The position numbers were made by a program, and so were the translations under genes. A stretch of DNA of 64,000 bases from Clostridiaceae bacterium (lineage in GTDB: Bacteria > Bacillota > Clostridia > TANB77 > CAG-508). The stretch is from NCBI GenBank assembly GCA_021771025.1, contig JAETPW010000003.1, forward strand, positions 8,279-72,278. Reading direction: 5' to 3'. A model generated the notes under the pieces. It saw nothing but the letters and a program-made list of their open reading frames with translations. It searched no databases and was not told where the DNA came from. Below, piece after piece: positions 4,081 through 62,671 of this stretch (its first letter is position 1; each line of letters starts with the position of its first letter).

Positions 4081-4617
4081 CTAAGAATTGAAATGAACAG
4101 AGGTAAGATTATGCGCTGAATCTTCTGCTTCAAATAAAGGTTCTTCTTCAAAATGAAACAAAGAAGCAAGTAGTGAAAGCGGAAATAAGTGAATAGAAGT
4201 ATTGTAAGAAGTCACTACTGAATTATAAATTCTACGAGCAGCTTGCAATTGGTTTTCAATTTTAGCTAAGCTTTTTTGCAAGAATAAGAATTGTTCACTA
4301 GCTTTTAACTCTGGATATTGTTCAGCAGTAGCTAATAGACTTTTGTATTCAGCATTTACTTGTTCAGCATCTGTTAATTTTTTTGTTTTTAAATAACGAG
4401 AACGTAATTCAGTAATATGAACCAATACACTTTCTTCATAATCAGTATAGGCTTTAACACAAGTAACTAAATTAGGAATAAGATCAAAACGTTGCGTTAA
4501 ATACACATCTATACTTGATTTTGCTTGATTTACTTTGTTTTGTAAATGCACAAATGAATTATAACAGTAAATGACTAGCAAAAGAACACAAACCAAAACA
4601 AGGCTTAAGATAAACAT
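4081..4617 (-). CDS. lemA: LemA family protein
   Basis: N-terminal TM helix followed by the LemA pattern (YNSFVHLQNKVNQAKSSIDVYLTQRFDLIPNLV...); AAGGAG RBS. Confidence 0.8.
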   Translation of the reverse strand: MFILSLVLVCVLLLVIYCYNSFVHLQNKVNQAKSSIDVYLTQRFDLIPNLVTCVKAYTDYEESVLVHITELRSRYLKTKKLTDAEQVNAEYKSLLATAEQYPELKASEQFLFLQKSLAKIENQLQAARRIYNSVVTSYNTSIHLFPLSLLASLFHFEEEPLFEAEDSAHNLTSVHFNS

Positions 4618-4729
4618 AAAAACATCTCCTTAGTTACTTTTTCCCTATCATATTAAAAATGAAAGAAAAAGTAAAAAGATATTCGACAAATTTTTTGTCA
4701 ACAAATCAGGAAAAATTCTCCAAAAACCA

Positions 4730-4758
4730 TTGACATACGGATAAAAGCATTGTATAAT
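4730..4758 (+). promoter_or_regulatory. Promoter of the S10 operon: TTGACA, 17-nt spacer, TGTATAAT
   Basis: Consensus -35 and -10 with a TG extension; it lies 330 nt upstream of rpsJ. Confidence 0.6.
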
Positions 4759-4765
4759 AGTTAAG

Positions 4766-5091
4766 CATGAATGAAGCGTTGAAGCTGAATGTGGCTACAT
4801 CCTTACGGAACTAAGGGTGGAGGGAACTTCAGTGGAGTATGTCATGGCAAAGACCAGGCGGTAAGTTAACATCTCTTTAGGCGTAGAAGCGGTTAAAGAG
4901 AAAAAAAGCATGTATAAATACATACATAAAAAAGCACTTATCCCAAAAGTATCATGCAAATTTGGGATTTTAACTAGGGAACATTCAAAACACCAGAGTG
5001 CGTTTTAACTTGCTACGGTAATTTTGATAGCAACATAGCTATCTTATGGGAAAAACCCAAAAATAAATTTTTAAAAGGAGGGAAAATTACA
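4766..5091 (+). promoter_or_regulatory. About 325-nt 5' leader of the S10 operon with several hairpins; candidate autoregulatory leader (for example L4-mediated)
   Basis: A long untranslated region between a strong promoter and the rpsJ RBS, with hairpins such as ATCCCAAA..TTTGGGAT; it contains only a 15-codon ORF. Confidence 0.35.
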
Positions 5092-5418
5092 ATGGCAAAG
5101 GCAACAGTTGTAACAAGTGAAAAAATCAGAATTAGACTAAAAGCGTATGATCATGTAATTTTAGAACAGTCTGCTGAAAAAATAGTAGATACTGCTAAGA
5201 AAACAGGAGCAAAGGTTTCAGGTCCAATTCCATTACCAACCCAAAAAGAAATCGTAACGATCTTACGTTCTCCACACAAATACAAAGATTCAAGAGAACA
5301 ATTTGAAATGAGAACCCATAAAAGAGTTATCGACATTCTTTACCCAACACAAAAAACAGTTGACAGTTTAATGAAATTAGAATTGCCAGCAGGTGTTGAC
5401 ATTGAAATTAAATTATAA
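5092..5418 (+). CDS. rpsJ: 30S ribosomal protein S10
   Basis: Translation [11 protein letters not shown]...; conserved position ahead of rplC. Confidence 0.95.
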
Positions 5419-5511
5419 GTTTACGTTTAAGCAAACCAAAAAAGCCAAGCTGATCTCACATAGTATATGCGAAATTAAACGATCAGCCAATAGTTAGGAG
5501 GAAAATAAAAA

Positions 5512-15160: not shown

Positions 15161-16480
15161 TTGTTTAAAACCATCAGAAACGCATTAAAGACCCCAGATG
15201 TAAGAAAAAGAGTTTTATATACACTATTACTTATCGTTGTCTTTCGTTTAGGATGTTATATCACCGTACCAGGAGTTGACAATTTTGCCCTAAACGATGC
15301 CATGGGATCAAACGAAGGAATAGCAGGACTAATTGATATTATCTCAGGTGGAGCTTTCTCAAGATTCTCTATCTTTGCCATGTCAATCAGTCCATACATT
15401 ACGGCATCAATTGTTATTCAATTATTAGGAATGATTATCCCATCTTTGGAACGTTTAACCAAAGAAGGAGGAGAAGAAGGAAGAAAGAAAATTAGTAAAT
15501 ATACCAAAATGTTAACCATTGTACTAGCATTAGTAGAAGGAATAGGAATTTACTTATCTTACCGTTCTTCAGGAATTTTCGTTAACCAAGAATTCTTAAC
15601 AGGATCATTAGTAGTAGGATCTCTAGTAGCAGGAACATCCATCTTAATGTGGCTTGGTGACCAAATTACTAACAAAGGAATTGGAAACGGAATATCCGTT
15701 ATCATCTTCACTGGTATTATTGCAGGACTACCAAGTTTTGTTATGATGCTTTGGGGATTAATCATGACAGCTAATGGATTTAGTACAACTGGATTATTAT
15801 TAGCTATCGGTATCTTAATTGGAGCAATTGTGTTAATAGCAGGAGTTGTCTTCGTACAACAAGCAGAAAGAAGAGTACCTGTTCAATATTCAAAAAAAGT
15901 AGTCGGAAGAAAAATGGTAGGAGCACAAAGTACACATATTCCATTAAAGCTAGCCATGGCTGGAGTTATGCCAATCATCTTTGCCTCCTCATTCATGACC
16001 TTCCCAGCGATGATCATTCAAATTTTTGTGCAAGATATCGCATCACAAACTGGATTCTTAGCAGGAATTTATAAATTTTCCATCGCAACCTCATCCTCAG
16101 CCGTAGGATTAGGATATTCCATTGGAAATGCCATAGTTTACTTATTATTAATTATAGGATTTACCTTCTTCTATACTTATGCTACCTTCAATCCAGCAGA
16201 AGTATCGAACAATATTAAGAAAAACGGTGGATTTATTCCAGGAATCAGAGCAGGAAAACCAACTACCGAATATCTATCTTCAATCATCTCTAAACTAACC
16301 TGGTTTGGAGGGCTATTCTTAGCATTAATTGCTATCCTACCAATGTTCTTAAGATTTACCAACCTAAACATTGCGTTTGGTGGTACATCTATCCTAATTG
16401 TCGTAGGAGTTGCCCTAGAAACAGTGCAACAACTAGAATCACAATTAGTCATGAGGCATTATAAAGGATTTTTAGAATAG
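15161..16480 (+). CDS. secY: Preprotein translocase subunit SecY (TTG start)
   Basis: 439 aa with 10 TM segments, MFKTIRNALK...; operon position. Confidence 0.93.
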   Translation: MFKTIRNALKTPDVRKRVLYTLLLIVVFRLGCYITVPGVDNFALNDAMGSNEGIAGLIDIISGGAFSRFSIFAMSISPYITASIVIQLLGMIIPSLERLTKEGGEEGRKKISKYTKMLTIVLALVEGIGIYLSYRSSGIFVNQEFLTGSLVVGSLVAGTSILMWLGDQITNKGIGNGISVIIFTGIIAGLPSFVMMLWGLIMTANGFSTTGLLLAIGILIGAIVLIAGVVFVQQAERRVPVQYSKKVVGRKMVGAQSTHIPLKLAMAGVMPIIFASSFMTFPAMIIQIFVQDIASQTGFLAGIYKFSIATSSSAVGLGYSIGNAIVYLLLIIGFTFFYTYATFNPAEVSNNIKKNGGFIPGIRAGKPTTEYLSSIISKLTWFGGLFLALIAILPMFLRFTNLNIAFGGTSILIVVGVALETVQQLESQLVMRHYKGFLE

Positions 16481-16531
16481 AATAAGAAGAGACAATCAAA
16501 TAAAAGCAAACGAAAGAAAAACGTAAGGATT

Positions 16532-16577
16532 CGTGGATAATAAAAATAGTATCATTATCCACGAGCCATCGTTTTTT
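16532..16577 (+). terminator. Hairpin CGTGGATAAT/ATTATCCACG followed by a T-run after secY
   Basis: 10-bp perfect stem, then AGCCATCG and TTTTTT. Confidence 0.5.
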
Positions 16578-16616
16578 CATCGTTTTTATCTTGTTTATCC
16601 ACCTAATGGGTAGGCA

Positions 16617-16675
16617 GGGTAGGGAAATAAAGGGGACGCCCTTTTCTTCCCTATTCAAAATTTCCCTATTTCAAG
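16617..16675 (+). repeat. GGGGACGCCC-core hairpin repeat, left-arm type (copy A)
   Basis: GGGTAGGGAAATAAAGGGGACGCCCTTTTCTTCCCTATTCAAAATTTCCCT is nearly identical to the left arm of the dnaK-dnaJ element. Confidence 0.8.
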
Positions 16676-16861
16676 TTAAAGGGGAAAGCCTAAAAATAAT
16701 GATTAGTTATCTAATCTAGGTAAGCTTTCCACGTACCAATACGATGAAAGAAAGAACAGATTGGCTTTAAAAGTTAGCAAATGTTAGGGAAAAAATAGGT
16801 AAATAAGATAAAGATTATGAAAAAACAATAATCTTAATTCAAAAGATAGGAAGTGTTTACT

Positions 16862-17518
16862 ATGGTCATTATCATGCTAGGAGCACCCGGAACAGGAAAG
16901 GGAACAGTAGCAGGAATCTTACAAGAGAAAATGGGAATTAAGCAAGTATCTACAGGAGATATATTTCGTAAAAACATCAAAGAAGGAACAGAACTAGGAA
17001 AATTAGCCGACAGTTACATATCCAAAGGAAATTTAGTACCAGATGAAGTAACCATTCAAATCGTTAAAGATCGTTTAAATGAGCCAGACGTAGAAAAAGG
17101 AATTATTTTAGATGGATTCCCAAGAACCATCGTTCAAGCAGAAGCATTAGAAAAAATGTTAGCAGAAAAAGGAAAAAAAGTCGATTTAGTCATTAATTTA
17201 GTTACCTCAGAAGAAGAAATTATTGAACGACTTGTTTACAGAAGAGTATGTCCAAATTGTAAAAGTATTTTCAATGTCATTCTACATCCACCAAAACAAG
17301 AAGGAATTTGTGACAATTGTGGACACGAATTAATCCATCGTGATGATGACAAAGAAGAAACCATAAAAGATAGATTTCAAACTTACTTAAAACAAACAAG
17401 TCCACTCATCGAGTATTATGAGAAAAAAGGCGTATTAAGAACAGAAGAAGTAAGCAAAAAAATCAATCGCATGGGAAAAGAAGTGGCAGAAGATATTGTT
17501 CAGGAATATCAATCCTAA
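16862..17518 (+). CDS. adk: Adenylate kinase with a zinc-binding lid
   Basis: P-loop GAPGTGKGT; lid CPNCKS...CDNCGHEL. The start is at the ATG 8 nt after AGGAAG. Confidence 0.93.
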   Translation: MVIIMLGAPGTGKGTVAGILQEKMGIKQVSTGDIFRKNIKEGTELGKLADSYISKGNLVPDEVTIQIVKDRLNEPDVEKGIILDGFPRTIVQAEALEKMLAEKGKKVDLVINLVTSEEEIIERLVYRRVCPNCKSIFNVILHPPKQEGICDNCGHELIHRDDDKEETIKDRFQTYLKQTSPLIEYYEKKGVLRTEEVSKKINRMGKEVAEDIVQEYQS

Positions 17519-17611
17519 ATTAGACGAAAAAGCAAAAAAGAAATCTTTAAGTTAGTACATCATTTGGGCTCACTCGCACCTGAATACCATCAGGGCAATT
17601 AAAGCAAAGGC

Positions 17612-17668
17612 AAATAGGGAAAAAATAGATAGGGAAAAAAAGGGCGTCCCCATAGGGAAGAAAGAAGG
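17612..17668 (+). repeat. GGGGACGCCC-core repeat, right-arm (inverted) type (copy B), 11 nt upstream of the map start codon
   Basis: AAATAGGGAAAAAATAGATAGGGAAAAAAAGGGCGTCCCCATAGGGAAGAAAG. Confidence 0.8.
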
Positions 17669-17678
17669 ATAACCAGAA

Positions 17679-18449
17679 ATGGTAACAATAAAGTCAAAAA
17701 AAGAAATCGAATACATGAAAGAAGCTTGTAAAGTAGTAGCTCTTACGTATCAAGAATTAGAACAAAAAATCAAACCGGGAATGACTACCTACGAATTAGA
17801 TCTAATAGCCGAAAGCACCATGAGAAAACTAGGAGCAATTCCAGCAGAAAAAGGATATGACATAGGAATTCGCGGAATTCCACCTTATCCGGCATCGATT
17901 TGTGTATCCATTAATGATGAAGTTATTCATGGAATACCCCATAAAAACAGAATCATCAAAGAAGGTGACATTGTCAGCATAGATACAGTAGCCTTAAAAA
18001 ATGGATTTCATGGAGATGCCGCAAGAACGTTTATGATTGGCAAAGTTTCCCATGAAGCTAAACGATTAGTAGAAGTAACCAAACAAGCCTTTTTTGAAGG
18101 AATTAAACAAGCTAAAGCTGGAAATCGCTTAGGAGATATTTGCCATACTATCGGCGAATACGTTCATTCACAGGGATATTCAGTAGTCAGAGAATTTCAA
18201 GGCCATGGAATAGGAAAAGAAATGCACGAAGACCCAGGAATTCCAAATTACGGAAAAGCAGGCAGAGGAATTAGGCTTGAACCCGGCATGACACTAGCGA
18301 TTGAACCAATGGTTATTCAAGGAAAACCAAACATTTTAGAATTAGAAGATGGATGGACCATTGTCACAGAAGATGGAAGTCTGGCAGCCCATTATGAAAA
18401 TACCATTTTAATTACAGAAAAAGAGCCAGAAATATTGACAATCCTTTAA
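17679..18449 (+). CDS. map: Methionine aminopeptidase type I
   Basis: Translation and conserved secY-adk-map-infA order. Confidence 0.93.
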   Translation: MVTIKSKKEIEYMKEACKVVALTYQELEQKIKPGMTTYELDLIAESTMRKLGAIPAEKGYDIGIRGIPPYPASICVSINDEVIHGIPHKNRIIKEGDIVSIDTVALKNGFHGDAARTFMIGKVSHEAKRLVEVTKQAFFEGIKQAKAGNRLGDICHTIGEYVHSQGYSVVREFQGHGIGKEMHEDPGIPNYGKAGRGIRLEPGMTLAIEPMVIQGKPNILELEDGWTIVTEDGSLAAHYENTILITEKEPEILTIL

Positions 18450-30584: not shown

Positions 30585-32582
30585 ATGGAAGATTTAGTAG
30601 AAAGCATATTAGACTATGTAAGATCAGATTATACCGATTATGCAGTCATGATCAATGGTGAATGGGGATCTGGAAAAACTCATTTTTGGAACAATAAAAT
30701 TCGCAAAAAAATCGAATCCATGCAACTCAATGGCAAACGTTACACCACCATTTATATGTCGCTTTATGGAATTTCTAATTTAGAGGAAATCAGTAAAAAG
30801 ATTTTCATTGAAACAACACAATTGATGGACAAAAATTTAAGAAAATTCATGGATGCCAATGGGCAAACAACGATTCCTGAATATGCAAAAACAGGATTAG
30901 ATATGGCCAACTTTTTTGGTGTTACCCAAAATGGCGATAAAATCGATTATGCCGACTTTTTCTCCACAGATGATAAAGTATTATGCTTTGATGATTTAGA
31001 GAGGGCAAATGTTGATGTAATAGATATTTTAGGGTATATTAATAATTTCGTAGAACATGATCACATCAAAACCATTATCATTTGTAATGAAAAAGAATTA
31101 TCCACTAAATTAAAAAGTTCCAATCTAGAAATGAAAACCTTTATTGCTACGTATTTGCTAGATAAACAAGGAGAACTAAATAAAAGCGATAAACCAATGG
31201 TAGAAAAAATACAAAGCAAAATAGAGCACGTATTTGATAAAGCCAATGACTACGAAAGAATCAAAGAAAAATTAATCGGGGAAACATTTGAATATGCTCC
31301 CAAATTTGATTACATCATTAATGGAATATTAATGAGATATGAAAATGATCCAGAATTAATCCGTTTTCTCCGCGAAAATACAGGACTTATCATATCTACC
31401 TTTGAACGAAGTGGAACAAGAAACTTAAGAATTCTAAAACACGCCTTAAATGACTTTAAAAAGATTTTTGAAATGGTAAACAAAAGTTACCCAAATACCA
31501 GTCATCGAGTTATGCAAACCATGTTAATCTTTACCATTGCCATTTCCTTTGAAATCAAAGCAGGAAAAGTAACTAAAGATAAATTCATTAACATTGATGA
31601 CAACGAAGAATACCGATCAATTTTGGTATCTTCCCGTATATTAATGGATAATCGCCAGTTCTACATCAAAGAATTCGACAGTAACTATTATTACAACTTT
31701 AAAGCAGAATATCGATTCTTCAAATTTATTGAATATTACATCAGAACCAGAATCTTTGATATGAAAATCTTTAAACATGATATGGAAACCATTAGAAATA
31801 CCATCGACACAGAAAATCTACCGGGCTACAAACGCTTACTAACCGAAGAATACTGGAAAATTTCAGACGACGAATTCGATGGGGTAATCAGGTCAGTTGT
31901 TGAAGACGTAAAACAAGGCGAACTAGCCCTAATCGATATGGTCAAAATCTATGCTTATTTTAGTTATTTTTCCAAGAAAAATTTAATTGATTATGATAGT
32001 AAAACCATAAAAAGCATTTTCTTTAATGGAATGAACTTAGCCTCATTAAAATCAGAATATTGTCCAAATGTAGAAGAAGAACTAGGAAAAATTGCTTTAG
32101 AAGAGTTCACAGAAGATATGGAAGAAATCTTAAAACATTTCCATACCTTAAATAATCAATTATTAGATAAAATGTATCGTGAACAAGCAGAAGAAATTTT
32201 CAAATGTATCCCAATGAAAATGGAACAGTTCTATGAAAAATTTGATAAACAATGTATGAATGTACCAATCTTTAAATATTACGATCCATACCAATTGTTC
32301 CAAAGAATTTCTTGTGCAAGCAATGAAGATATTGTTTTAATTAAAGAAAAATTAGTCAATCGTGCAGACAAAAATCCAAAACAAATTGAAGCGGAAATGA
32401 AAAATATTAAATTATTAAAACAAATTTTAGATGATTACTTAAAAGAAAAAGAAACTACCATCAAAATTGTCATGTTAAAAGAATTCTCGAGAGAATTAGG
32501 TTATATTTTAGGAAAATATAAACCAACCTTTTTGCCTAGAAAAGAAGATAAAGAAGAAGTAAACGAAACAGTAGAAGGGTAA
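30585..32582 (+). CDS. KAP-family P-loop NTPase, 665 aa, solitary
   Basis: Walker A NGEWGSGKTHF, Walker B region LCFDDLERA, and a long helical C-terminal region typical of KAP NTPases. Confidence 0.7.
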   Translation: MEDLVESILDYVRSDYTDYAVMINGEWGSGKTHFWNNKIRKKIESMQLNGKRYTTIYMSLYGISNLEEISKKIFIETTQLMDKNLRKFMDANGQTTIPEYAKTGLDMANFFGVTQNGDKIDYADFFSTDDKVLCFDDLERANVDVIDILGYINNFVEHDHIKTIIICNEKELSTKLKSSNLEMKTFIATYLLDKQGELNKSDKPMVEKIQSKIEHVFDKANDYERIKEKLIGETFEYAPKFDYIINGILMRYENDPELIRFLRENTGLIISTFERSGTRNLRILKHALNDFKKIFEMVNKSYPNTSHRVMQTMLIFTIAISFEIKAGKVTKDKFINIDDNEEYRSILVSSRILMDNRQFYIKEFDSNYYYNFKAEYRFFKFIEYYIRTRIFDMKIFKHDMETIRNTIDTENLPGYKRLLTEEYWKISDDEFDGVIRSVVEDVKQGELALIDMVKIYAYFSYFSKKNLIDYDSKTIKSIFFNGMNLASLKSEYCPNVEEELGKIALEEFTEDMEEILKHFHTLNNQLLDKMYREQAEEIFKCIPMKMEQFYEKFDKQCMNVPIFKYYDPYQLFQRISCASNEDIVLIKEKLVNRADKNPKQIEAEMKNIKLLKQILDDYLKEKETTIKIVMLKEFSRELGYILGKYKPTFLPRKEDKEEVNETVEG

Positions 32583-33866: not shown

Positions 33867-35924
33867 ATGACACAAGAAAATAATCATCAAGAAGAAAGAA
33901 AAACAAATCAAACAACCGAAAGGAACGAAAGACCAAGAAGGCAAAGAACACCAAGAGAAACAGCACAAAATGAAGGAGAAACTACTCAGAGAACTACCCA
34001 AAGAACAACAAGAACCCAAAGACCAAGAAGAAACAGCTATACCAAAAACGAAACGATAGCTGATGCGAACACTACTGCACAAGTTAACCAAATAAAAGGA
34101 GCAGAGGAAGAAAAAACAGAAAATACAGTAGGAACCAGAAATAGAACTAGAACAAACAACAACAGAAGAACAAATGCAGAAAGAAATAGAGGAGAAAATC
34201 AAAGAGAAAATAACTACCGCAGTAATACCAATACAAGAGAGAAAAAAGACAACTCCTTATTCAAATCCTCTAAACTAAAAATCATTCCTTTAGGAGGACT
34301 TCACGAAGTAGGAAAAAACATTACCGTATTTGAATACGAAGACGAAATCATTATCGTAGACTGTGGACTATCTTTTCCAGAAGACGATATGTTAGGAATT
34401 GACCTAGTTATTCCTGATATTACCTATTTAATCAAAAATCAAGAAAAAATCAAAGGATTAGTCATTACCCATGGTCACGAAGACCATATAGGAAGTATTC
34501 CCTATTTCCTAAAACAAATTAATGTACCAATCTATGCCCCAAGGCTTGCGATTGGACTAATTAAAAACAAGTTAGAAGAACATAAACTATTAAGAAGTAC
34601 CAAATTAAACGAAATAGTCCCAGGGCAAACCATTAAATTTGGAAAAAACTTTACGGTAGAATTCATTAGAAGTACACACAGTATTCCAGACTCCATGATG
34701 TTATCCATCAAAACACCAATAGGAACCATTCTACACACAGGTGACTTTAAAGTAGATTATACGCCAATTGACGGAAAAGTAATGGACTTTGGGCGTATTG
34801 CAGAACTTGGAAATGAAGGAATTTTAGCCTTAATGTCAGACAGTACTAATGCAGAAAGAAAAGGATTTACCATGTCTGAAAGTTCAGTAGGAGAAGTATT
34901 TGACAAACTATTTATTCACTGTACCAAAAGAATTGTCGTAGCAACTTTTGCTTCTAACGTACACAGAGTACAACAAATTGTCAATTCAGCCATCAAATAT
35001 GGAAGAAAAGTAGCCGTTTGTGGTAGAAGTATGATCAACATGATTAACACAGCACGTGATTTAGGCTATATTGAATGTCCAGAAGATTTATTTATCGATA
35101 TTGACCAAATGTCAACCTATAATGATGAACAATTAGTCATTATCACAACAGGAAGTCAAGGAGAACCAATGTCAGCTTTAACTAGAATGGCAGCAGGAGA
35201 CCACAGAAAAGTAAAAATCACACAAAATGACTTAGTTATCATATCAGCGAACCCAATACCAGGAAATGAAAAATTGGTATCTAAAGTAATTGATGACTTA
35301 ATGCAAATTGGAGCAGAAGTAGTATATAGTGCCTTAGCAGATATTCACGTATCTGGGCATGCTTGCCAAGAAGAACAAAAACTAATTTTAGCGTTAACCA
35401 AGCCAAAATTCTTTATACCTGTCCACGGAGAATATAGACAATTAATGTCACATGCAGAAACAGCTCAAAACATGGGAATACCAAGAAAAAATATCATCTA
35501 TCTATCAAATGGTAGAGTATTAGAAATTGACCCAGAAGAAGCCAAATTAACAGGAAACGTACCAAGTGGAAGAGTGCTAGTAGATGGACTTGGTGTAGGA
35601 GACGTAGGAAATATTGTATTAAGAGATAGGCAACATTTATCACAAGATGGACTAATTGTTATAGTATTAACCATGGACTCAAATACCGGAGAAGTAGTAG
35701 CAGGACCAGATGTTATCTCAAGAGGATTCGTGTATGTAAGAGAATCCGAAAACCTAATGGATGAAGTAAAATCAGTGGTAAAACACGAAATCTCTAAATG
35801 TGAAGAAAGAGGAGTTCGTGATTGGGCAACGATTAAATCAACAGTGAGAGACAATTTAAGAGATTACTTATTTGTGAAAACAAAGAGGAATCCAATGATT
35901 ATTCCAATTATTATGGAAGTATAA
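33867..35924 (+). CDS. rnj: Ribonuclease J (metallo-beta-lactamase/beta-CASP) with an N-terminal low-complexity extension of about 125 aa rich in Arg, Thr, Asn and Gln
   Basis: HGHEDHIG motif and the RNase J core starting at KLKIIPLGGLHEVGKN; the extension has no internal Met, so the ATG at 33867 with an AAAGGAAG RBS is the only start. Confidence 0.85.
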   Translation: MTQENNHQEERKTNQTTERNERPRRQRTPRETAQNEGETTQRTTQRTTRTQRPRRNSYTKNETIADANTTAQVNQIKGAEEEKTENTVGTRNRTRTNNNRRTNAERNRGENQRENNYRSNTNTREKKDNSLFKSSKLKIIPLGGLHEVGKNITVFEYEDEIIIVDCGLSFPEDDMLGIDLVIPDITYLIKNQEKIKGLVITHGHEDHIGSIPYFLKQINVPIYAPRLAIGLIKNKLEEHKLLRSTKLNEIVPGQTIKFGKNFTVEFIRSTHSIPDSMMLSIKTPIGTILHTGDFKVDYTPIDGKVMDFGRIAELGNEGILALMSDSTNAERKGFTMSESSVGEVFDKLFIHCTKRIVVATFASNVHRVQQIVNSAIKYGRKVAVCGRSMINMINTARDLGYIECPEDLFIDIDQMSTYNDEQLVIITTGSQGEPMSALTRMAAGDHRKVKITQNDLVIISANPIPGNEKLVSKVIDDLMQIGAEVVYSALADIHVSGHACQEEQKLILALTKPKFFIPVHGEYRQLMSHAETAQNMGIPRKNIIYLSNGRVLEIDPEEAKLTGNVPSGRVLVDGLGVGDVGNIVLRDRQHLSQDGLIVIVLTMDSNTGEVVAGPDVISRGFVYVRESENLMDEVKSVVKHEISKCEERGVRDWATIKSTVRDNLRDYLFVKTKRNPMIIPIIMEV

Positions 35925-40536: not shown

Positions 40537-42228
40537 TTAGTTCTTGACGTTTAGTTGATAAATAGTCAGATAATCAATAGAAGTAATTTCTTGAAATTCA
40601 ATTTCCTTATCTTTAGCATAATGTTCCTTTAAAAAAGTAGAAATCATAGCCAAATGAGATAAATCCTGATGATCAATTAAATAATAATGATCATGAGTTA
40701 ACAAAGAAGAATAAAGACCATCAATTTCATATTTTTCTTTAAAACGATAATATTTACTATCATACATAGACCAACTTCCTAAAGGGTGAATATTTTGAAG
40801 AATTCCTTTAGGAGAAGTAGTAAATAGATTAGTTTGATAATAGCGTAATTGCAAAGCACGAGTAGGATAAACATAAGCATTTTCAGGATGACGGTTAAGG
40901 TAAGTAATCAACTTATTATAAGTCGCTTCATTATATTCGATATTTTCCCAAGTATCACTTATCGTAAAAAAAGCATAGGATAATGACTGAGCTAACAATA
41001 AAAAGACAAGTACGATATGAATAGTAATATGGCTAAGCAATAATTTACTCGATAGTCGACTGTTAAGAAGTAGCAAAAAAGCAGGAATAAACAGCACAGG
41101 ATAAACTACACGAAAAACATCTCTTCCTAATACAATAAATAACAAAAATTGCAAAATCCCGGGGAACAACAACCAAAACTTCTTTTTGGGGCTAGCTTTC
41201 AAAGTAAGGCATAAAAAGAGATAGATGAGTAGTAAATAAGTACTAGGTAGCAAAAAACAAAGGGCAAAAAACTGCTTACTATTCTCAAAGATAGAATGGA
41301 AAAAAGAAATTACATCAAAATGAAGGAAACGAGATATTCCATTCATCTCTTGATTCATCAGATTAATCGAAGCAACACGATCATGAGAAAATACCATTTC
41401 ATCACCAGCTGAAAATAAATGAAATAAGCGTAAATCATTTTCAGACCAACCAACTTGATCAGTTATTTGATTAGTTTCTTTAAAATAAGCAGTATCATTT
41501 AATATGCTACGTTCTTTATCGTATTGGTAATAATAAGATTTACGCTCATCTTGATAACCTTGCCAATGAAAAAAGAAAAGGATGCCATATACCATAAACA
41601 AAACAAGATTAATGCCGATAAACATACGCAAAGTAGAAAGTCTTCTCTTCGCTTGGTGGTGACGCATTATTTCATAAATACCGATGCCAATCGCAAAGAA
41701 TAGATAAGAAATAAACACAAGATGACGAATCAGAAGAGCTAGTACAAAAGTAATCATCAAAATGACAAAATCAGATTTCCTACGAAACGTATAATAGGAA
41801 AGTTGATACACTAAACTAAGTAGCAAATAACAATAAGCAACAATAGTGTATTGCAACTTCAGCGTAATAAGTACATAAACAGGAACAATAAAAAGGAACA
41901 AAACCAAATAACGAAGACGGGAATGTTTCTGTTTTTGCAGGAAACGATAAGTCAGAATAGTAAAAATAATCAGTTGGCTACCCACTAAGAATAAAGCATA
42001 CCAATTTAAGGAATGAAAAAGCCCAAACAAAAAAACGAATAAGTTAGCTAACCAAACATGAACATAAAGTACATGACAGTCAGATTGCCCATAATAACCC
42101 GCTAGCATTTCTTGGATCATATAATCATCAATTTCATTGTATTGAATGAGGTGTAAACCAAACAAAAGAAGAGTGATCAACACAAAGACAATACCAATGC
42201 TTATCCATTTTTTCATGAAAAAGGTCAT
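40537..42228 (-). CDS. Polytopic membrane protein, probably a GT-C fold glycosyltransferase
   Basis: 563 aa with more than 10 TM helices and a C-terminal soluble domain; a DDY-type motif sits in the first loop. Confidence 0.45.
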   Translation of the reverse strand: MTFFMKKWISIGIVFVLITLLLFGLHLIQYNEIDDYMIQEMLAGYYGQSDCHVLYVHVWLANLFVFLFGLFHSLNWYALFLVGSQLIIFTILTYRFLQKQKHSRLRYLVLFLFIVPVYVLITLKLQYTIVAYCYLLLSLVYQLSYYTFRRKSDFVILMITFVLALLIRHLVFISYLFFAIGIGIYEIMRHHQAKRRLSTLRMFIGINLVLFMVYGILFFFHWQGYQDERKSYYYQYDKERSILNDTAYFKETNQITDQVGWSENDLRLFHLFSAGDEMVFSHDRVASINLMNQEMNGISRFLHFDVISFFHSIFENSKQFFALCFLLPSTYLLLIYLFLCLTLKASPKKKFWLLFPGILQFLLFIVLGRDVFRVVYPVLFIPAFLLLLNSRLSSKLLLSHITIHIVLVFLLLAQSLSYAFFTISDTWENIEYNEATYNKLITYLNRHPENAYVYPTRALQLRYYQTNLFTTSPKGILQNIHPLGSWSMYDSKYYRFKEKYEIDGLYSSLLTHDHYYLIDHQDLSHLAMISTFLKEHYAKDKEIEFQEITSIDYLTIYQLNVKN

Positions 42229-44710: not shown

Positions 44711-45001
44711 TTATTTTTTGAATGTATTAGCTAAATTTTCACATAAATCCAAATACAAATTTCGATGTTCTTCAGGAATAGAGTTTAGTAATTCACCGAA
44801 AGTGGTATCTACATTACTTAGGTTAATTCCCAATACAAGATAATCTAAATTAAGTGCTAAAACAGAGGCAATTTTAGTAATAGTGGATAAACTACAAATA
44901 CTTGTTCCACGTTCAATTTCACTCACATAAGAGGGAGATACATCAATCAATTCAGACAACTTTTCTTGTGTTAGTTTTAGTTCAACTCGTTTATTTTTCA
45001 T
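44711..45001 (-). CDS. XRE-family HTH transcriptional regulator
   Basis: LKLTQEKLSELIDVSPSYVSEIERGTSICSLSTITKIASVL. The start is chosen at MKNKRVEL; the longer ORF extends to 45193 through a hydrophobic segment. Confidence 0.55.
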   Translation of the reverse strand: MKNKRVELKLTQEKLSELIDVSPSYVSEIERGTSICSLSTITKIASVLALNLDYLVLGINLSNVDTTFGELLNSIPEEHRNLYLDLCENLANTFKK

Positions 45002-45167
45002 TCGTTTTCCGATTTCTACATAATTTAATTCATCCGTTTTTTTCACCTCATATATTATACCATATTGTATAACGAAAAAAATTCCAATAAAACCAACTAT
45101 AACTGTTGAAGATATACTATGACTGTGATAGAATAAAGAAAAAAAGGGAACGAAAGAGGAGATAAAA

Positions 45168-46369
45168 TGAACAAAGTTAAAAGAAAGTATCAATTAAAAA
45201 AAGCTCAAAAAATAATGGGGGATTACTTTAATTGCTTTAGTCATCACCATCATCGTACTTCTTATTTTAGCAGGGGTAACGATTGCTACATTGACAGGTA
45301 ATAATGGAATATTAACCAATGCTAATGAAGCCAAGAAAATGACCAAGATAGGAGAAATAAAAGAATTACTTCGGGATCAAACAAGCAGAACAAATTGAGG
45401 ACGATAACGTAGTAGAAAACTATGACAAATTAATTCAAAAACTAGAAGAACATCCTGAATATCTAATCATAGGAAATACCGTCAAAGCCAACTATCAGAA
45501 CTTTACTTGTGTAGAACAACAACTATTAGTACAAGATGCACACGTAGAAATAACAGGGGAAAACACAAAACCATATGGTAGTATAGAAAAAGAAATGAAA
45601 GACGGAAAAGTGATATTAACGATTTATGGCGTAGATGATGATACAGACATCAAAACAATCATTAGCCCTAATGGGGAAGAAAAGAAAATTAATTATGAAG
45701 AGGATAGAATTATTAATATAACTGACTTATTAACAGAGGTAGATCCATACGTTCAAACAACAGTAAAAAATTTTCACCATTATTTAAAAGAAATAGTTTA
45801 TCATGTACAAGATAAAAAAAGTGAAGAAATAGATTTACAAAAAGATAAGAAAAATATCATCGTAAATACTACTTGGTATTGGGGAATAAAGAAACCAAAG
45901 GTAATAAATCAATGTTTTGAAAATGGATTTTCTGTTTTAACAAATGGAAATGATAATAAAAGTGATCTAAAAATTATTAAGAGTTATGAACAAGGAAGTG
46001 CAGAAGAAATTCAAAATACTAAGATACTAAAATCTAATGAAATCACGTCACAAGACATCAATAGTAGTGAACAGGGGGAAGATGGCAAATCAATTACAAC
46101 GATCAAGTAGAAGTATGGAAAAAAGAGATAAAAACAGATGGAAGTGAAAGAGATTTAATTGGCTGTTGGAAAGGAGAAAAAGAAAATAAATGGATTGACC
46201 TTCATAATGAAAATATAGAAAATAATACAATATTCCGTAATAGTATTTATCGCCTTTCCGGAACGCGTAGCTTAACGTATGAAGTAACCCAAAACGGAAC
46301 ATACACATTTACATTAGTGGATTTGTGTGGGAATAGAGCTGAATTAAATGTTGATGTAAATGAATTATA
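45168..46369 (+). pseudogene. Type IV pilin-like/pseudopilin-like gene broken by three frameshifts (near 45215, 45360-45396 and 46108)
   Basis: MNKVKRKYQLKKAQKIMG then a frame change to ITLIALVITIIVLLILAGVTIATLTGNNGIL (prepilin-like hydrophobic N-terminus, no Glu at +5), then two further frame changes; the first occurs in a GGGGG run. Confidence 0.45.
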
Positions 46370-46792: not shown

Positions 46793-48022
46793 ATGAAATG
46801 TATATTAATGAATAAAAATACTCCTATAGCTTTAATTGAATACAACACTACCTATCACGCCATGGAAAAAATAGATAAAGAATACAACATAGACTATGCA
46901 CCTCTTTCTTTCATCAATGCGAAAAAAAATAGATCATTAAATGAAGTAAAAGTATTGAACGAATGGTTTAAAAGTAGAGGAATTCCATCATGGAGAAAAG
47001 ACTTAGAAAGACTATTAGAAAGGCTAAACATTACCTCACCAGATGAACTATTAACGAAAGCTTTTGCCTTATCTTTATCAGACCAATATTGGATAAAAGA
47101 AAAAGATAGTCATATCGAATGGAAAGATATTAACTTTTTCATGAATGATTTTGAATACAAAGGTTATCTAGCAGCCTCTTTAAGTAGCATAAACAAAACG
47201 GAAAAAATTAGTCTTCATTCACCTAATAATACAACAGATGGAATGTTACAAAAAGGCTGGATAATCGAAAATGGGAAAAGAATTCTAGTAAAGGGAACAT
47301 ATGCACCAAGCAGACAAGAACCAATCAATGAATGGTTAGCCTCTACCATAGGAAAAAGGCTAGGATTTGATTATTGTAACTATACTGTTGAAATTTCAGA
47401 CAATAAAATTATTTCAAAATGTGAAAATTTTGTTCATGAAAACGAAGAAATAATCACCGCAAAAGACATCTTTTCATCAGAACAAAAAAATAATAACGTA
47501 AGTGACCTAGAACATTATATTAACCTATTAGAAAAACACGAAGTGCCAAATGCAAGAGAAAATGTAGAAAATATGCTTATACTAGACTATATCATGATGA
47601 ATGACGATAGGCACCTAAGAAATTTCGGGGTAATAAGAAATGTTGATACACTAAAATGGGTAAAAACGACCCCTATCTTTGATACAGGAGAATCAATGCA
47701 ATGTAGAAAGTTGACTAGCGAAATCAACTTTTTAGATGGAGAAGGCAAGTTTTTTACCAATACAGAACGAAAATTTTCTACTTATTTAAGAGAAATAAAA
47801 GAAATAGAAAGAATTCCCTACCAAAAACTAAATAGAGTACAAGAAGAATATAAACAAATGCTAATAGATACTCAAAAATACACAGAAATAACAGAAGAAA
47901 GAACAGAAAAATTAGTACAAGGACTAGCATTAAGAATTGCACTTTTAGGAAAACAAATTGAAAAAGCAAAACATCGGTTAATGAGAAATCAAGAAAAAAT
48001 ATACTTAAACATAAAATGGTAA
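46793..48022 (+). CDS. HipA-like serine/threonine kinase (type II toxin family) without an obvious HipB partner
   Basis: HipA C-terminal catalytic motif LILDYIMMNDDRHLRNFGVIRN and N-terminal LSDQYWIKE-type region. Confidence 0.65.
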   Translation: MKCILMNKNTPIALIEYNTTYHAMEKIDKEYNIDYAPLSFINAKKNRSLNEVKVLNEWFKSRGIPSWRKDLERLLERLNITSPDELLTKAFALSLSDQYWIKEKDSHIEWKDINFFMNDFEYKGYLAASLSSINKTEKISLHSPNNTTDGMLQKGWIIENGKRILVKGTYAPSRQEPINEWLASTIGKRLGFDYCNYTVEISDNKIISKCENFVHENEEIITAKDIFSSEQKNNNVSDLEHYINLLEKHEVPNARENVENMLILDYIMMNDDRHLRNFGVIRNVDTLKWVKTTPIFDTGESMQCRKLTSEINFLDGEGKFFTNTERKFSTYLREIKEIERIPYQKLNRVQEEYKQMLIDTQKYTEITEERTEKLVQGLALRIALLGKQIEKAKHRLMRNQEKIYLNIKW

Positions 48023-54095: not shown

Positions 54096-54118
54096 GAGAG
54101 AAAAGAAAAAAGACAGGT

Positions 54119-54258
54119 AGGTAGGGAAATAAGGGGGACGCCCTTTTCTTCCCTATCTAAAATTTCCCTCTTTCTCCTAATTTAAAAATAGAAAAATCAA
54201 TACAATAGAAAGAAGTTATGGGATAGGGAAGAAAAGGGCGTCCCCCTTATTTCCCTAC
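54119..54258. repeat. GGGGACGCCC-core element, complete copy C: perfect 37-bp inverted arms (54121-54157 and 54222-54258) separated by 64 nt, between dnaK and dnaJ
   Basis: GTAGGGAAATAAGGGGGACGCCCTTTTCTTCCCTATC and its exact reverse complement. Confidence 0.85.
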
Positions 54259-54287
54259 TTACTACATAAAATGGAGGAAGTTAATCA

Positions 54288-57914: not shown

Positions 57915-59916
57915 ATGAACATTAACGATAATACCACAAATCAAAACCAAGAAAAGACTAACCATCAAGAAAAAGAAACAAAATCAAAAAATAAAGAAAA
58001 AGTAGCTTTAACACAAAATCAAAATAGCAAAAGAATTCTGCAAAAAGGATTGAATTCTATCGCTTTTCCGATAGTAATAGGAATAGGGCTACTCATAAAA
58101 ACAGTATTTTTTTATACACAAACTATAGCAAGTACAGAAGGTCTAGCTATGGAAACAATGATAGGAACGACTATTATTTTAACTACTCTTACCTGCTTTC
58201 TAGCAATGTTACCAAATCGTGCTAGAATTTTAACAACATTAGGATTAGATGCTGTCTTAAGTCTGATTTTATGGGGTGATGGGTTATATTATCAATACTC
58301 CAATAATGTATTATCCGTTTCCCAAATTACCAACTTACAATATGGAGAAGAAATCATGGGAACTCTTCCTATGTTACTACAGGTAAATCAACTGATCTAT
58401 ATGATCGATATCTTAATTGTCATTGGATTAATCCTAGGAAAAGTAATCTCCATTAGCCAAAAACCAAAAAAATCAAAGAAACAAAGACTAGGAAAAATCC
58501 TATTTGGCATAATAGGAAGTATTTTATTTGTTGCCACCTGTGTACATTATGGGGAAAAGGGAATCGATAAATCATATAATAAAGACCTACAAATTAGAGA
58601 AGCAACCATTTTTGGATACCATCTGCTAGATATAGAAAGTATGATCAATAGTAAAAAACAAGCACCATTTAAGACAAAACAAGAAATGCTAGCTATTTAT
58701 GAACCGCTAAAAGAAAGGTATGAACAAAATTACGGAGATCAGGTAATAGAGGGGTTAGAAGGAATAGCCAAAAATAAAAATGCCATCATTGTACAATTAG
58801 AATCATTTCAAGAATTTGTTTTGCACCAAACCATTGATGGGCAAGAAATCACACCAAACTTGAACCGCTTTTTAACAGAAAATATTGAATTTACAGATAT
58901 GCACATGCAAAGTTACTCATCTACCGCAGATTCAGAATTTTCAACAATAACCTCTTTCTATCCTATGGAAAATGGAATGTCATTTAGCCGCTATGATGGA
59001 AATCACTATGATGATATTTTTGCTATGTTCCATGAAGCTGGTTACCAAACAGGATATATGCACGGAAATGTCCGGATCTTTCTGGAATCGAAATAATGTG
59101 TATAAACGTTTGCCGGTAGATCATATCGACTTTATTGATCAATTTGAAGACACATCAGAAATGGTAAATGGCTATCTATCCGATGAACTACTATATATTC
59201 AGGCTGTACAAAAACTAAAAACGAGGCAAACACAAGATAAACCGATTTTTCAATTTATTGTAGCTGCCTCTTCGCACACAGGGTTTGGCTTAGAAGGTCT
59301 GCAAGACAGAAGCAAAATTTCCATTGATGTAGGAAAATACCAAGACACATATTTTGGTCATTATCTAGAAGCGGTAAACTATGCAGACTATGCCTTTGGT
59401 GTATTATTAGAAAAATTAAAACAAGAAAATTTATACGAAGACACGGTCATTTTAGTTTTTGGGGATCATAATGGGCTACCTATGGTTAACGAAGAATTAG
59501 AAGACTTTCTACAAGAACGTCATGGAGAAATAAAGGAAATTGACCGAAAACTAACCTATACACGAGTAGCTGCTGGCATGAGAATTCCGGGAATAGAGCC
59601 ACTAAAAATCAATAAACCAATTAGTAAACTAGATATTAAACCAACTTTCTCTATTCTTTTTGGTCTATCAGACGGAATCTCATTAGGAACTAGTTTTTTT
59701 GGAACCAAAGATTACGTTTCTTTAAACAACGAAAGAATTATTGCAGAAGATAGTTATTTTGACGAAGTTTGGTACAAGCGATCAACAGGAGAAATCATTG
59801 ACGAAGAAAATTGTGCAGAAGACCAAAAACAAAAATTAATCCAAAGAGTACAAAACATGAAAGAAGAATTAGCCATTTCTTTATCAACCAATATTCATAA
59901 CCTGCTAGCACAATAA
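57915..59916 (+). pseudogene. LtaS-family sulfatase-domain protein (lipoteichoic acid synthase-like) split by a +1 frameshift near 59070
   Basis: N-terminal five TM helices; frame 1 ends ...YMHGNVRIFLESK, frame 2 continues GSFWNRNNVYKRLPVDHIDF...FGDHNGLP. This matches the contiguous LtaS region HG..FWNR.QVYK. Confidence 0.7.
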
Positions 59917-59933: not shown

Positions 59934-60965
59934 ATGTCAGGCATGGAAGAAGAAAGAATCATCAATCCAGAACTAGAAAATCAAGGAGAAGAACGCTTAG
60001 AAAATTCATTGCGTCCGAAAACATTAGAAGAATATATAGGGCAAGACAAAATAAAAGAACACATGAAAATATATATTGAAGCAGCGAAAAAAAGAGGAGA
60101 ACCACTAGATCATGTTCTCCTTTATGGACCACCGGGATTAGGAAAAACAACTCTCTCCAATATCATTGCTAACGAAATGCAATCCAATATCAAAATTACT
60201 TCCGGACCAGCCATAGAAAAACCAGGTGACTTAGCCTCTATTCTAACAAATTTATGCGAATATGACGTCCTTTTCATCGATGAAATACACCGCTTAAGCA
60301 AAAGCGTAGAAGAAATTCTCTATCCGGCCTTAGAAGATTACACACTAGATATTATGATCGGAAAAGGACCAAGTGCGAGATCAATTCGCTTAGATCTACC
60401 CAAATTCACTTTAATTGGAGCGACCACAAAAGCAGGATCATTAACCACACCATTAAGAGACCGATTTGGCATAGTTGATCGACTAGAACTCTATAATGAA
60501 GAAGATTTAACCAAAATCATCAAACGATCAAGCCATATCTTAGACGTAGAAATACAAGAAGAAGCAGCCATAGAAATGGCACGAAGATCAAGAGGAACAC
60601 CAAGAATAGCCAACCGACTACTAAAACGAGTAAGAGACTACGCATCAGTCATCGGAAATGGAACAATCGATCTAAAAATAGCCAAACACGCATTAAACAA
60701 ACTAGAAATAGACGAATTAGGTCTAGATGATATCGACCGAAAACTCCTAGACACCATGATCACCCAATATGCCGGAAAGCCAGTAGGAATAGAAGCATTA
60801 GCAGCAACCATAGGAGAAGAATTAGACACTATAGAAGATGTCTATGAACCATACCTAATCCAAATTGGATTCATTGCTAGAACACTAAGAGGAAGAATGG
60901 TTTTACCACCAGCGTATCATCATTTAGGGTACCCTTATTTAGGGGACTCAGGGAGAAGGAACTAG
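59934..60965 (+). CDS. ruvB: Holliday junction branch migration helicase RuvB
   Basis: Walker [10 protein letters not shown], RuvB domain architecture. No ruvA lies upstream. Confidence 0.9.
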
Positions 60966-61102
60966 GGAACTAGGGAAAAAAAGGGGACGCCCTTAATTTC
61001 CCTATCCAAAATTTCCCTGTTTTAACAATAGCAGTAATATTCAGCAGTAAATCAATAGGGAAAAAAAGCATAGGGAAGAAAAGGGCGTCCCCTAAGGGAA
61101 AG
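60962..61102. repeat. GGGGACGCCC-core element, copy D: an imperfect inverted pair separated by about 70 nt. It overlaps the ruvB stop and ends about 10 nt before the next ATG
   Basis: Left arm AGGGAAAAAAAGGGGACGCCCTTAATTTCCCTATCC; right arm ATAGGGAAGAAAAGGGCGTCCCCTAAGGGAAAGG. Confidence 0.8.
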
Positions 61103-61111
61103 GATATAAAT

Positions 61112-62671
61112 ATGAGGAACAAAGCAAAAAAAATAGCCATATTTGCTTTCTTATTTGTGATGATATTATCATTATTACTCATCAAACCAATTGAAGATTT
61201 AGATGAAATATGGAATTATAATACAGCCAGAGCAATTGCCTCAGGCTTAACACCTTACCGAGAAGTTAGCATGATCACCACTCCATTTTTACCCATGATA
61301 AATTCTCTTTTTTTGCACGGGATAGCCAATCAAGTGATTACCATGAGAGTGTTAGCAGCTTTATTAGGAGCAGGAATTTGCTATTTACTTTACCGTATAT
61401 TTCAGCACATTTGGCACGAAACCAATATCAGTTTAATAGCAACAGCAGGAATAGGGTATTTACTTCATGAATTTTTCTGTTTAGACTATAACTTTGCCAA
61501 TCTTTTTATCGCTCTCCTATTGTTGCTGATTACGATAAACCAAAATCAAAAACAACAATCCATACAAGAAATCACTCTCCAGAAGAATAAACAAATAGGA
61601 ATGGGGTTATTAGCGGGAATAGCGATAGGAATTAAGCAAACAACAGGACTTACCATTTGCTTAATTACCTTACTACTACCTCTGCTAGAAATACGAAAAA
61701 AAGAAGACTTAAAAGCATATGGGAAAATAACAGCCTATCGCATAATAGGAATGGCGATTCCCATGATAGGATTACTAGGATATTTAATCATCACACAATC
61801 TTTACCTGACTTTATTTCCTACTCTATACAAGGAATATCAACATTTACCAATCAAATCCCATATGAACGATTATTAGAAAGCGACAAAACAGAAATAAAA
61901 ATACTAGCTAGATTAGTACCAATCTCATGGCTTATTCTATTAATAACAAGTATAATCACAAGAAAAAAACACCAAGAAAGAAACAATTGGCTAAGTATGC
62001 TAGGATATGGACTAGCCATGATTATTATGATCTATCCTATCTCAGACGAAATACATTTTATCATTGGAAGCACAATTTTTATTCTAGCCGATATAGCTAT
62101 TTTAGGAAGCTTTGGAAAATATGTCCTACAAAAATTAATCATCAAATTCCCCAAACTACACCTAAAAAGAACCTATAAAATCATCACATTATTGCTATTT
62201 TTAGGAATCTATGGCTGGATAGCAAGTAAAGGCATAACCAACCTAAGGAAATACGATACCTTAGAAAAAAACGAAACAATCGCTCACTACCAAGAAATCG
62301 AAATAAAAGACTATTTAAAGCAAAGAATTAATGAAATAGACCAATACATCACCGAAAAAAACAAGCAAGGAAAAACAGTGTATATCCTAGATGCAGAAGC
62401 AGCAATTTACCAAATCCCATTAAACCACTATCACAAAAACTTTGATATGTTCTTAAAAGGAAACTTAGGAAAAGAAGGAGAACAAGGAATAATCAAACAA
62501 ATCCAAGAACTACAGCAAGACCCTAACAACCTATTTCTCATTCGTCATCCAGACTGGCGACAAAATTGGCAAACACCAATGGAAGTTATTCAGTATGTAA
62601 GAAACAATTTCATTAAAACGGGAGAAATATCGTTTTATGAAGAATTTCTTCCTTCTGGGGACGGTTCCTAA
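61112..62671 (+). CDS. Polytopic membrane protein, GT-C fold glycosyltransferase-like (ArnT/PMT/YfhO-like)
   Basis: 519 aa with more than 10 TM helices and the loop motif DLDEIWNYNTARAIASG. Confidence 0.5.
   Translation: MRNKAKKIAIFAFLFVMILSLLLIKPIEDLDEIWNYNTARAIASGLTPYREVSMITTPFLPMINSLFLHGIANQVITMRVLAALLGAGICYLLYRIFQHIWHETNISLIATAGIGYLLHEFFCLDYNFANLFIALLLLLITINQNQKQQSIQEITLQKNKQIGMGLLAGIAIGIKQTTGLTICLITLLLPLLEIRKKEDLKAYGKITAYRIIGMAIPMIGLLGYLIITQSLPDFISYSIQGISTFTNQIPYERLLESDKTEIKILARLVPISWLILLITSIITRKKHQERNNWLSMLGYGLAMIIMIYPISDEIHFIIGSTIFILADIAILGSFGKYVLQKLIIKFPKLHLKRTYKIITLLLFLGIYGWIASKGITNLRKYDTLEKNETIAHYQEIEIKDYLKQRINEIDQYITEKNKQGKTVYILDAEAAIYQIPLNHYHKNFDMFLKGNLGKEGEQGIIKQIQELQQDPNNLFLIRHPDWRQNWQTPMEVIQYVRNNFIKTGEISFYEEFLPSGDGS

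Follow-up and report, generated by a model that had tools for sequence, protein, structure and literature searches.

Repetitive extragenic palindromic sequences (REPs) and REPINs, the REP doublets that form hairpins, are mobilised by RAYT transposases and are known from Pseudomonas and Enterobacteria (PMC3116915, PMC3337134). A REPIN consists of two inverted REPs around a spacer whose length varies and whose sequence never recurs; singlets are remnants, excision of the interior leaves a palindromic singlet, and a genome holds several sequence groups (PMC3337134). Here we describe a REP/REPIN-like family of short repeats in a 64-kb stretch of DNA from a Clostridiaceae bacterium (64,000 nucleotides of contig JAETPW010000003.1; hereafter the window). 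One repeat unit, or arm, lies after secY and a second one, in inverted orientation, lies before map, with the whole adenylate kinase gene adk between them. The two arms are probably separate singlets of the family and the adk pair passive, the bracket around the gene being a by-product and not a switch.

The core motif of the repeat, GGGGACGCCC, occurs six times in the window as against 0 times in 100 shuffles, and the six sites form three plus/minus head-to-head pairs (16632+/17642-, 54134+/54236- and 60983+/61083-). The extended 23-mer GGGGACGCCCTTTTCTTCCCTAT, with up to three mismatches allowed, falls on the same six sites, and within the window an nhmmer profile made from 56 unique arms recovers these six (E 1e-14 to 3e-10) and nothing else of significance. 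All six are intergenic. Around adk, the repeat search returned an inverted repeat of 40 nt that is 85% complementary (16632-16671 / 17612-17651), together with direct TAGGGAA copies that likewise flank the gene. Motif, repeat and profile searches thus confirm the pair of inverted arms, left after secY and right before map, that a preliminary description of this DNA had pointed out; the distance between the arms is 940 nt, and not the 960 that had been claimed. Its naming of secY, adk and map is borne out by NCBIfam models. The near-identity that it had seen between the left arm at adk and the left arm in the dnaK-dnaJ gap holds at 51 of 59 positions. The right arm at adk is identical to the right arm downstream of ruvB at 47 of 52 positions, and to that of the dnaK-dnaJ gap at only 36 of 54. 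The left arm starts 136 nt past the secY stop codon, and 27 nt lie between the core of the right arm and the map start codon (Table 1).

Table 1. Repeat arms, genes and associated elements in the window (window positions; arm layouts are given on the plus strand)
Feature	Positions	Strand	Evidence and remarks
secY	15161..16480	+	TIGR00967, 3e-118; upstream neighbour
Conserved hairpin (CGTGGATAAT / ATTATCCACG) with T-rich tail	16531..16612	+	Between secY and left arm; outside the repeat family
Left arm, REP-like unit	16620..16673	+	nhmmer E=1.4e-14; folds alone; layout TAGGGAA(16620)-ATAAA-GGGGACGCCC(16632-16641)-TTTTC-TTCCCTAT-N7-TTCCCTAT
37-40-bp repeat unit	16760..16799	+	Between left arm and adk; alignments; TRF period 37 in L002
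adk, adenylate kinase, 218 aa	16862..17518	+	NCBIfam NF001380, 6e-86; between the two arms
Right arm, same REP-like unit as left arm	17611..17660	-	nhmmer E=3.2e-12; layout ATAGGGAA-N8-TAGGGAA-AAAAA-GGGCGTCCCC(17642-17651)-A-TAGGGAAG
map, methionyl aminopeptidase	17679..18449	+	TIGR00500, 5e-93; downstream neighbour
Compact doublet, dnaK-dnaJ gap	54120..54261	.	~43-bp perfectly paired arms, 66-nt spacer
Compact doublet, between ruvB and 519-aa membrane protein	60958..61095	.	Hairpin and nhmmer matches

The repeat unit is about 50 nt long and reads, from its outer to its inner end, TAGGGAA, 2-5 nt, GGGGACGCCC, about 5 T-rich nt, TTCCCTAT, 7 nt and TTCCCTAT; it carries one or two of the TTCCCTAT motifs, 15 bp apart. 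The outer TAGGGAA is complementary to the first TTCCCTA, which lets a single arm fold. The left arm at adk forms an RNA hairpin of -23.5 kcal/mol (-10.8 kcal/mol as DNA) and that at dnaK one of -24.9 kcal/mol, the left arms as DNA giving hairpins of about -10 kcal/mol. In the right arms of the window's lineage the outer motif is direct (…GGGCGTCCCC-A-TAGGGAAG…) and there is no outer inverted motif; these arms therefore have no fold of their own, as seen at adk (-4.7 kcal/mol, z +0.5). The compact doublets fold into long hairpins, of -87.4 kcal/mol (z -13.9) in the dnaK-dnaJ gap and of -54.1 kcal/mol (z -6.1) downstream of ruvB. Across seven doublets from the window and related sequences, the span from core to core ranges from 49 to 173 nt, and the interiors share no sequence, their local alignment scores being at background. 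Beside the palindrome, GTAGGGAA is found in four arms of the window's lineage, with TTAG, ATAG, AGAG or AAAG elsewhere, and no invariant tetranucleotide emerged across the family arms compared. The dinucleotide TA flanks some doublets (dnaK-dnaJ, L115; loci and contigs outside the window are cited by such numbers) and not others (L039, L063, L011); TA also belongs to the inner motif copies, and no empty site was recovered.

The family has no counterpart in Rfam or in a literature search by sequence string. At gathering score, the sole Rfam match in the window is a tRNA, and the repeat has none; in E-value mode the repeat draws matches from generic long-hairpin models (miRNA precursors), all of them below threshold. 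The string search gave only unrelated eukaryotic and viral matches. Other identities for the arms were considered and rejected. Terminators are unlikely, as the stem seems too weak (3 G-C pairs in its core, with the T run itself part of the stem) and the arms sit within operons; a terminator scan flagged no more than a marginal stem of 5 bp, which lies in the right arm on the minus strand, and the canonical terminator in the related L011 differs from the arms. For promoters, of sigma-70 or ECF-like type, no fitting hexamer spacing was found by eye and the scan was blank at the arms. Target duplication of TA, as in mariner/IS630-like elements, was considered because it would account for the TAG stop codons and the TTCCCTA-AAGGAGG junctions; TA is also in the motif at inner copies, and several doublets are without it.

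Outside the window, the only match in genome collections lies in L011, a metagenome-assembled genome labelled Lachnospiraceae bacterium, where 8 kb hold three arms, one as a singlet immediately past gdpP and two as a doublet in the dnaB-tilS gap. A metagenome scan gave 94 human-gut loci, selected by the arm-core pattern, and core conservation among those loci is not used as evidence here. They reduce to about 40 unique sites, with singlets in the majority; viral contigs held no copy of the repeat. The singlets obey a rule of orientation. In 26 of 28 unique singlets the TAGGGAA side points toward the nearer gene boundary (binomial p=3e-6). Where this outer side faces the end of a gene, the core lies 6-43 nt past the stop codon; where it faces the start of a gene, the core lies 19-27 nt ahead of the start codon, with 0-3 nt between hairpin and ribosome-binding site. 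Several genes even use the TAG of TAGGGAA as their stop codon, among them ruvB of the window, whose stop (60963-60965, the open reading frame (ORF) ending at 60965) belongs to the first TAGGGAA of its doublet. For the gene downstream of that doublet, an exact-protein look-up gave no polymorphism.

A sister repeat group has the same core (GGGACGCCC and a T run) with the complementary outer stem TGTCAAA/TTTGACA (L108 74-122; L042 3347; L086 7685; L099 8252), and includes a doublet with a perfect 31-bp stem, of -40 kcal/mol as DNA. Two wide pairs, with arms 2.9 kb (L050) and 7.5 kb (L034) apart, were tried as further gene-enclosing pairs and rejected; they are unrelated singlets in separate gene gaps, and in one of them an arm lies between convergent genes. 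The arm on the gdpP side in L011 was also tried as half of a pair. It has no partner before rplI, and the 433-aa ORF directly 3' of it, between gdpP and rplI (4122-5423, no Pfam match), has a canonical terminator at its end. At L045 1316 (compare L037 10618 and L050 1476) the left flank of one arm site is joined to the right flank of another. This junction lies exactly at an arm and reflects either recombination between arms of different loci or a metagenome assembly chimera, L045 being a low-coverage metagenome contig.

The basis for the inverted pair around adk probably lies in the orientation rule of the singlets. The left arm takes up, in the secY-adk gap, the usual position after a stop codon, and the right arm, in the adk-map gap, the usual position just ahead of a ribosome-binding site, each with its TAGGGAA side turned outward to the neighbouring gene. 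As each arm obeys the orientation rule independently, their inverted orientation across adk follows with no need for a split element. Singlets placed independently in two successive gaps can combine in four ways, and one arm after a stop with one before a start is one of these. A pair of independent half-elements flanking adk, one of the origins put forward in the preliminary description, fits the data, singlets being the commonest form and each arm following the placement rule. Its other proposal, a single element expanded or split by adk, is not supported: adk stands at the universal secY-adk-map position, also in an armless relative, and no remnants of partner arms were detectable. The family may have spread through a trans-acting enzyme, RAYT-like or other, or through recombination, and its hairpins may have an effect on the mRNA.

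Several observations weigh against two passive singlets of a REP-like family. The partner that defines a REP family, a single-copy RAYT (Y1 HUH transposase) gene with the repeats usually on either side of it, was not found among the 30 window ORFs scanned with Pfam; a search with E. coli RayT (tblastn and phmmer), a distant and insensitive query, was blank in 0.9 Mb of DNA (best E=2.6). No empty-site allele was recovered that would show insertion and target duplication. The tight placement at ribosome-binding sites and stop codons is undescribed for REPs and may speak for a host function over pure selfishness. The core of the left arm lies 151 nt from the secY stop codon, as against 6-43 nt elsewhere. 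Finally, three of the three window pairs are head to head, which could also be the picture if the two arms at adk formed a genuine wide doublet.

To follow the locus in relatives, we compared contigs with an identical Adk and contigs of relatives at 98% and 90% Adk identity. All contigs that cross the arms (the window, L001 from JGI, L016 at 98%, L012 at 90%, and L133) are collinear, in the order secY, left arm, adk forward, right arm and map; L002, L003, L013 and L015 are collinear across the right arm. The NCBI assembly of L133 (GCA_021768165.1) is identical to the window at 677 of 677 positions over the adk stretch. The left arm is kept at the same site in L001, L016, L133 and L012. No inverted adk and no adk-less junction was found in any of these arm-crossing assemblies, which are assembled contigs from several samples and two lineages. 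The ends of many short-read contigs fall inside the arms, as expected of a multi-copy repeat, and such assemblies therefore cannot reveal rare variants. The arms break short-read assemblies at fixed points, and adk is consequently often an isolated contig of about 1 kb.

Divergence at the locus is uneven. Four-fold degenerate sites are 60-83% identical between the window and L012, and the whole arms, at 79% and 73%, are roughly neutral by this measure. The arm cores are kept at 10 of 10 and 9 of 10 positions and the TTCCCTA motifs are retained, while the bases between the motifs have diverged, which points to motifs that are under constraint or homogenised. The L012 right arm consists of one motif and the core; in its left arm, the bases opposite the right arm have changed from TTTTC to CAAAC with no compensation. 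In a lineage at 75% Adk identity there are no arms, and two extra ORFs stand between secY and adk (L020 674-3000, L022; 150 and 240 aa, no Pfam match); the secY-adk gap thus seems to accept insertions in this clade.

The intergenic DNA around the arms holds further elements. The hairpin block after secY is 122/130 identical to the L012 lineage (94%), with its stem kept and its loop changed, and probably serves the spc operon as a conserved terminator or attenuator; DnaA-box-like TTATCCAC strings occur in it three times. The unit of 37-40 bp between the left arm and adk is present in 0 copies in L001, which is without window positions 16689-16793, in one in the window, in two in L016 and in three in L002 and L004. 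Within this unit, TAGGGAAAAAATAGG (16785-16799) was tried as a remnant of a right arm, of which it matches 16 of 17 bases; the profile gives it E=4.4, and it was assigned to the unit. Directly 5' of adk, 65 nt (16795-16861) that include a small hairpin (AAGATTAT…ATAATCTT) show no difference in the 90% lineage, a conservation far above that of neutral sites, and are likely the adk leader or promoter region. The window shares with L016 and L001 about 90 bp past the adk stop codon (17519-17610), with the small hairpin CCTGAATACCATCAGG, that L012 lacks.

Away from adk the family is dynamic, as seen at dnaK-dnaJ. L120, which has an identical DnaJ, carries a single arm between the two genes and is 102 bp shorter there than the window and L119 (L120 1410-1500; window 54096-54287). 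The break falls within the direct repeats of TAGGGAA at 54122 and 54224. We read this as the collapse of the doublet to a singlet through a 102-bp deletion, with deletion and gain not polarised by the comparison. In L117, a lineage further removed (DnaJ 87%), the dnaK-dnaJ gap is armless and holds a different hairpin.

The preliminary description had also proposed that the inverted arms recombine and thereby invert or excise adk, as a switch or as a composite mobile unit, and had named beforehand, as the outcome refuting this, the same repeats in relatives free of rearrangement. The related strains and the 90% lineage do carry the same repeats, with no rearrangement polymorphism in the assembled contigs, and we regard recombination across adk as extremely improbable. 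The inverted repeat of 40 nt at 85% speaks for it, but the longest uninterrupted identity between the adk arms is 14 nt. RecA-dependent exchange usually requires roughly 20-30 bp of uninterrupted identity, and 14 nt, being below this minimum, counts against recombination of the arms. Excision is a separate matter, as inverted repeats yield inversion and not excision. It could draw on the direct TAGGGAA copies that flank adk, and deletion between such copies has occurred at dnaK-dnaJ; the same type of deletion across adk would, however, remove a gene that is essential in the bacteria studied so far, and would not survive. An inverted adk, for its part, would oppose the direction of its own operon, whose neighbours are ribosomal-protein and translation genes (gene tables of L001 and L012). 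No recombinase or transposase was found among 33 scanned window ORFs, a scan that excluded the intervening ribosomal-protein ORFs. The L045 contig, which joins the flanks of two arm sites, is what recombination between arms would look like, but with its low coverage it may be an assembly chimera. The claim specific to adk thus fails, and the bracket is a stable, passive arrangement.

Motif conservation and tight placement at gene boundaries leave room for a role of the arms at the RNA level. The arms could be hairpins of host function that punctuate operons, those after a stop codon protecting the 3' end of the upstream cistron and those ahead of a ribosome-binding site protecting or tuning the 5' end of the downstream one; at adk they would act on the secY 3' end and the map 5' end, not on adk. 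This is unlikely, in our judgement. It agrees with the location of the cores 19-27 nt ahead of starts or on or just past stops, and with the presence of RNase J, a 5' exonuclease, encoded at 33867-35924, but the downstream genes have no functional theme in common. The motifs are conserved at orthologous sites with divergence between them, and the sister group keeps the core with a different yet complementary outer stem; the identity of the whole arms to the 90% lineage is nevertheless about neutral, and the right arms of the window's lineage lack a fold of their own. Hosts also do without the arms, one strain having lost an arm at dnaK-dnaJ and a distant lineage being armless at both dnaK-dnaJ and adk. 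In a second proposal, which we hold to be very improbable, the adk pair is a true wide doublet: its arms would pair across the 940 nt within the secY-adk-map transcript, and the resulting stalk, double-stranded over about 40 bp and a substrate of RNase III type, would release or regulate the adk cistron, much like the processing stalks around rRNAs. The predicted duplex between the arms (-56.2 kcal/mol, versus -28.2 for the arms folded separately) argues for it, but the stable local hairpin of the left arm forms first during transcription, and ribosomes on adk would disrupt such long-range pairing. The head-to-head orientation is that of the compact hairpin doublets, and the Correia elements of Neisseria, which are RNase III targets (PMC2649163), offer a precedent; no other gene-enclosing pair was found, however, those of L034 and L050 being unrelated singlets, and a conserved terminator-like hairpin stands between secY and the left arm. 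The 90% lineage retains both arms, but its right arm is reduced and the TTTTC to CAAAC change in its left arm is uncompensated. A combination of the two ideas, in which a lineage-specific punctuation of cistrons brackets adk so that arm pairing (-56 kcal/mol) or paired processing frees it from the spc operon transcript, is also quite unlikely. If punctuation of cistrons were true, hairpins locked on stop codons and ribosome-binding sites would set mRNA ends and stability, and the family would not be merely selfish.

Elsewhere in the window, a sulfatase-domain protein appears split over the overlapping ORFs 57915-59096 and 58972-59916 (Pfam positions 1-100 and 100-300), which could reflect a frameshift, a pseudogene or a sequencing error. 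A helix-turn-helix protein (44711-45193, minus strand) and a HipA-like kinase (46793-48022, plus strand) lie near each other and may form a module of toxin-antitoxin type. A KAP-family NTPase is encoded at 30585-32582 on the plus strand, and ORFs of 563 aa (40537-42228) and 519 aa (61112-62671) gave no Pfam match.

Comparison with described systems places the family closest to the REPs and REPINs. With invertons it has in common that the adk segment is bounded by inverted repeats. Unlike invertons, the segment has a single orientation in all assemblies, the ORFs scanned yielded no recombinase, what the repeats enclose is a housekeeping gene and not a promoter or a variable gene, and the same repeat stands at many unrelated sites, mostly single. 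The MITEs (miniature inverted-repeat transposable elements) compared were Correia of Neisseria, RUP and BOX of Streptococcus pneumoniae, and ERIC (PMC2649163, PMC2229807, PMC10969869, PMC3049150). Like them, the family includes intergenic elements some 100-170 bp long, bounded by terminal inverted repeats, which can form hairpins in transcripts, vary in presence by strain and can supply or abut expression signals. MITE copies, however, share their interior, whereas the doublets here share only their arms; on the sequences compared, classical membership fails at this point. There is furthermore no clear target-site duplication, the flanking TA being part of the motif and found also at inner copies, and no parent insertion sequence with matching ends was seen.

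The likeness to REPs and REPINs extends over several features. The repeat is short, imperfectly palindromic and G+C-rich at its centre, and can form a hairpin; it is strictly extragenic and multi-copy; it occurs as singlets and as inverted doublets with long hairpins, whose spacers vary in length and sequence; and several sequence groups are built on one design, with TAGGGAA or TGTCAAA outer stems. The L120 singlet at dnaK-dnaJ resembles the product of REPIN excision (PMC3337134). Unlike in the known families, the repeat unit has extra direct TTCCCTAT copies at 15-bp spacing, no conserved tetranucleotide was identified in the arms compared that would match GTAG, the cleavage site beside the palindrome in E. 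coli, singlets outnumber doublets, and by a strong rule the outer end coincides with a stop codon or abuts a ribosome-binding site. The host is also different, an uncultured low-G+C gut member of the Clostridia and not a proteobacterium. Repeats of REP/REPIN type have so far come mostly from Proteobacteria, and a comparable family in gut Clostridia widens this picture; its strict placement lends itself well to the question of whether gene boundaries are just the only places where such repeats are tolerated or the host puts them to use there.

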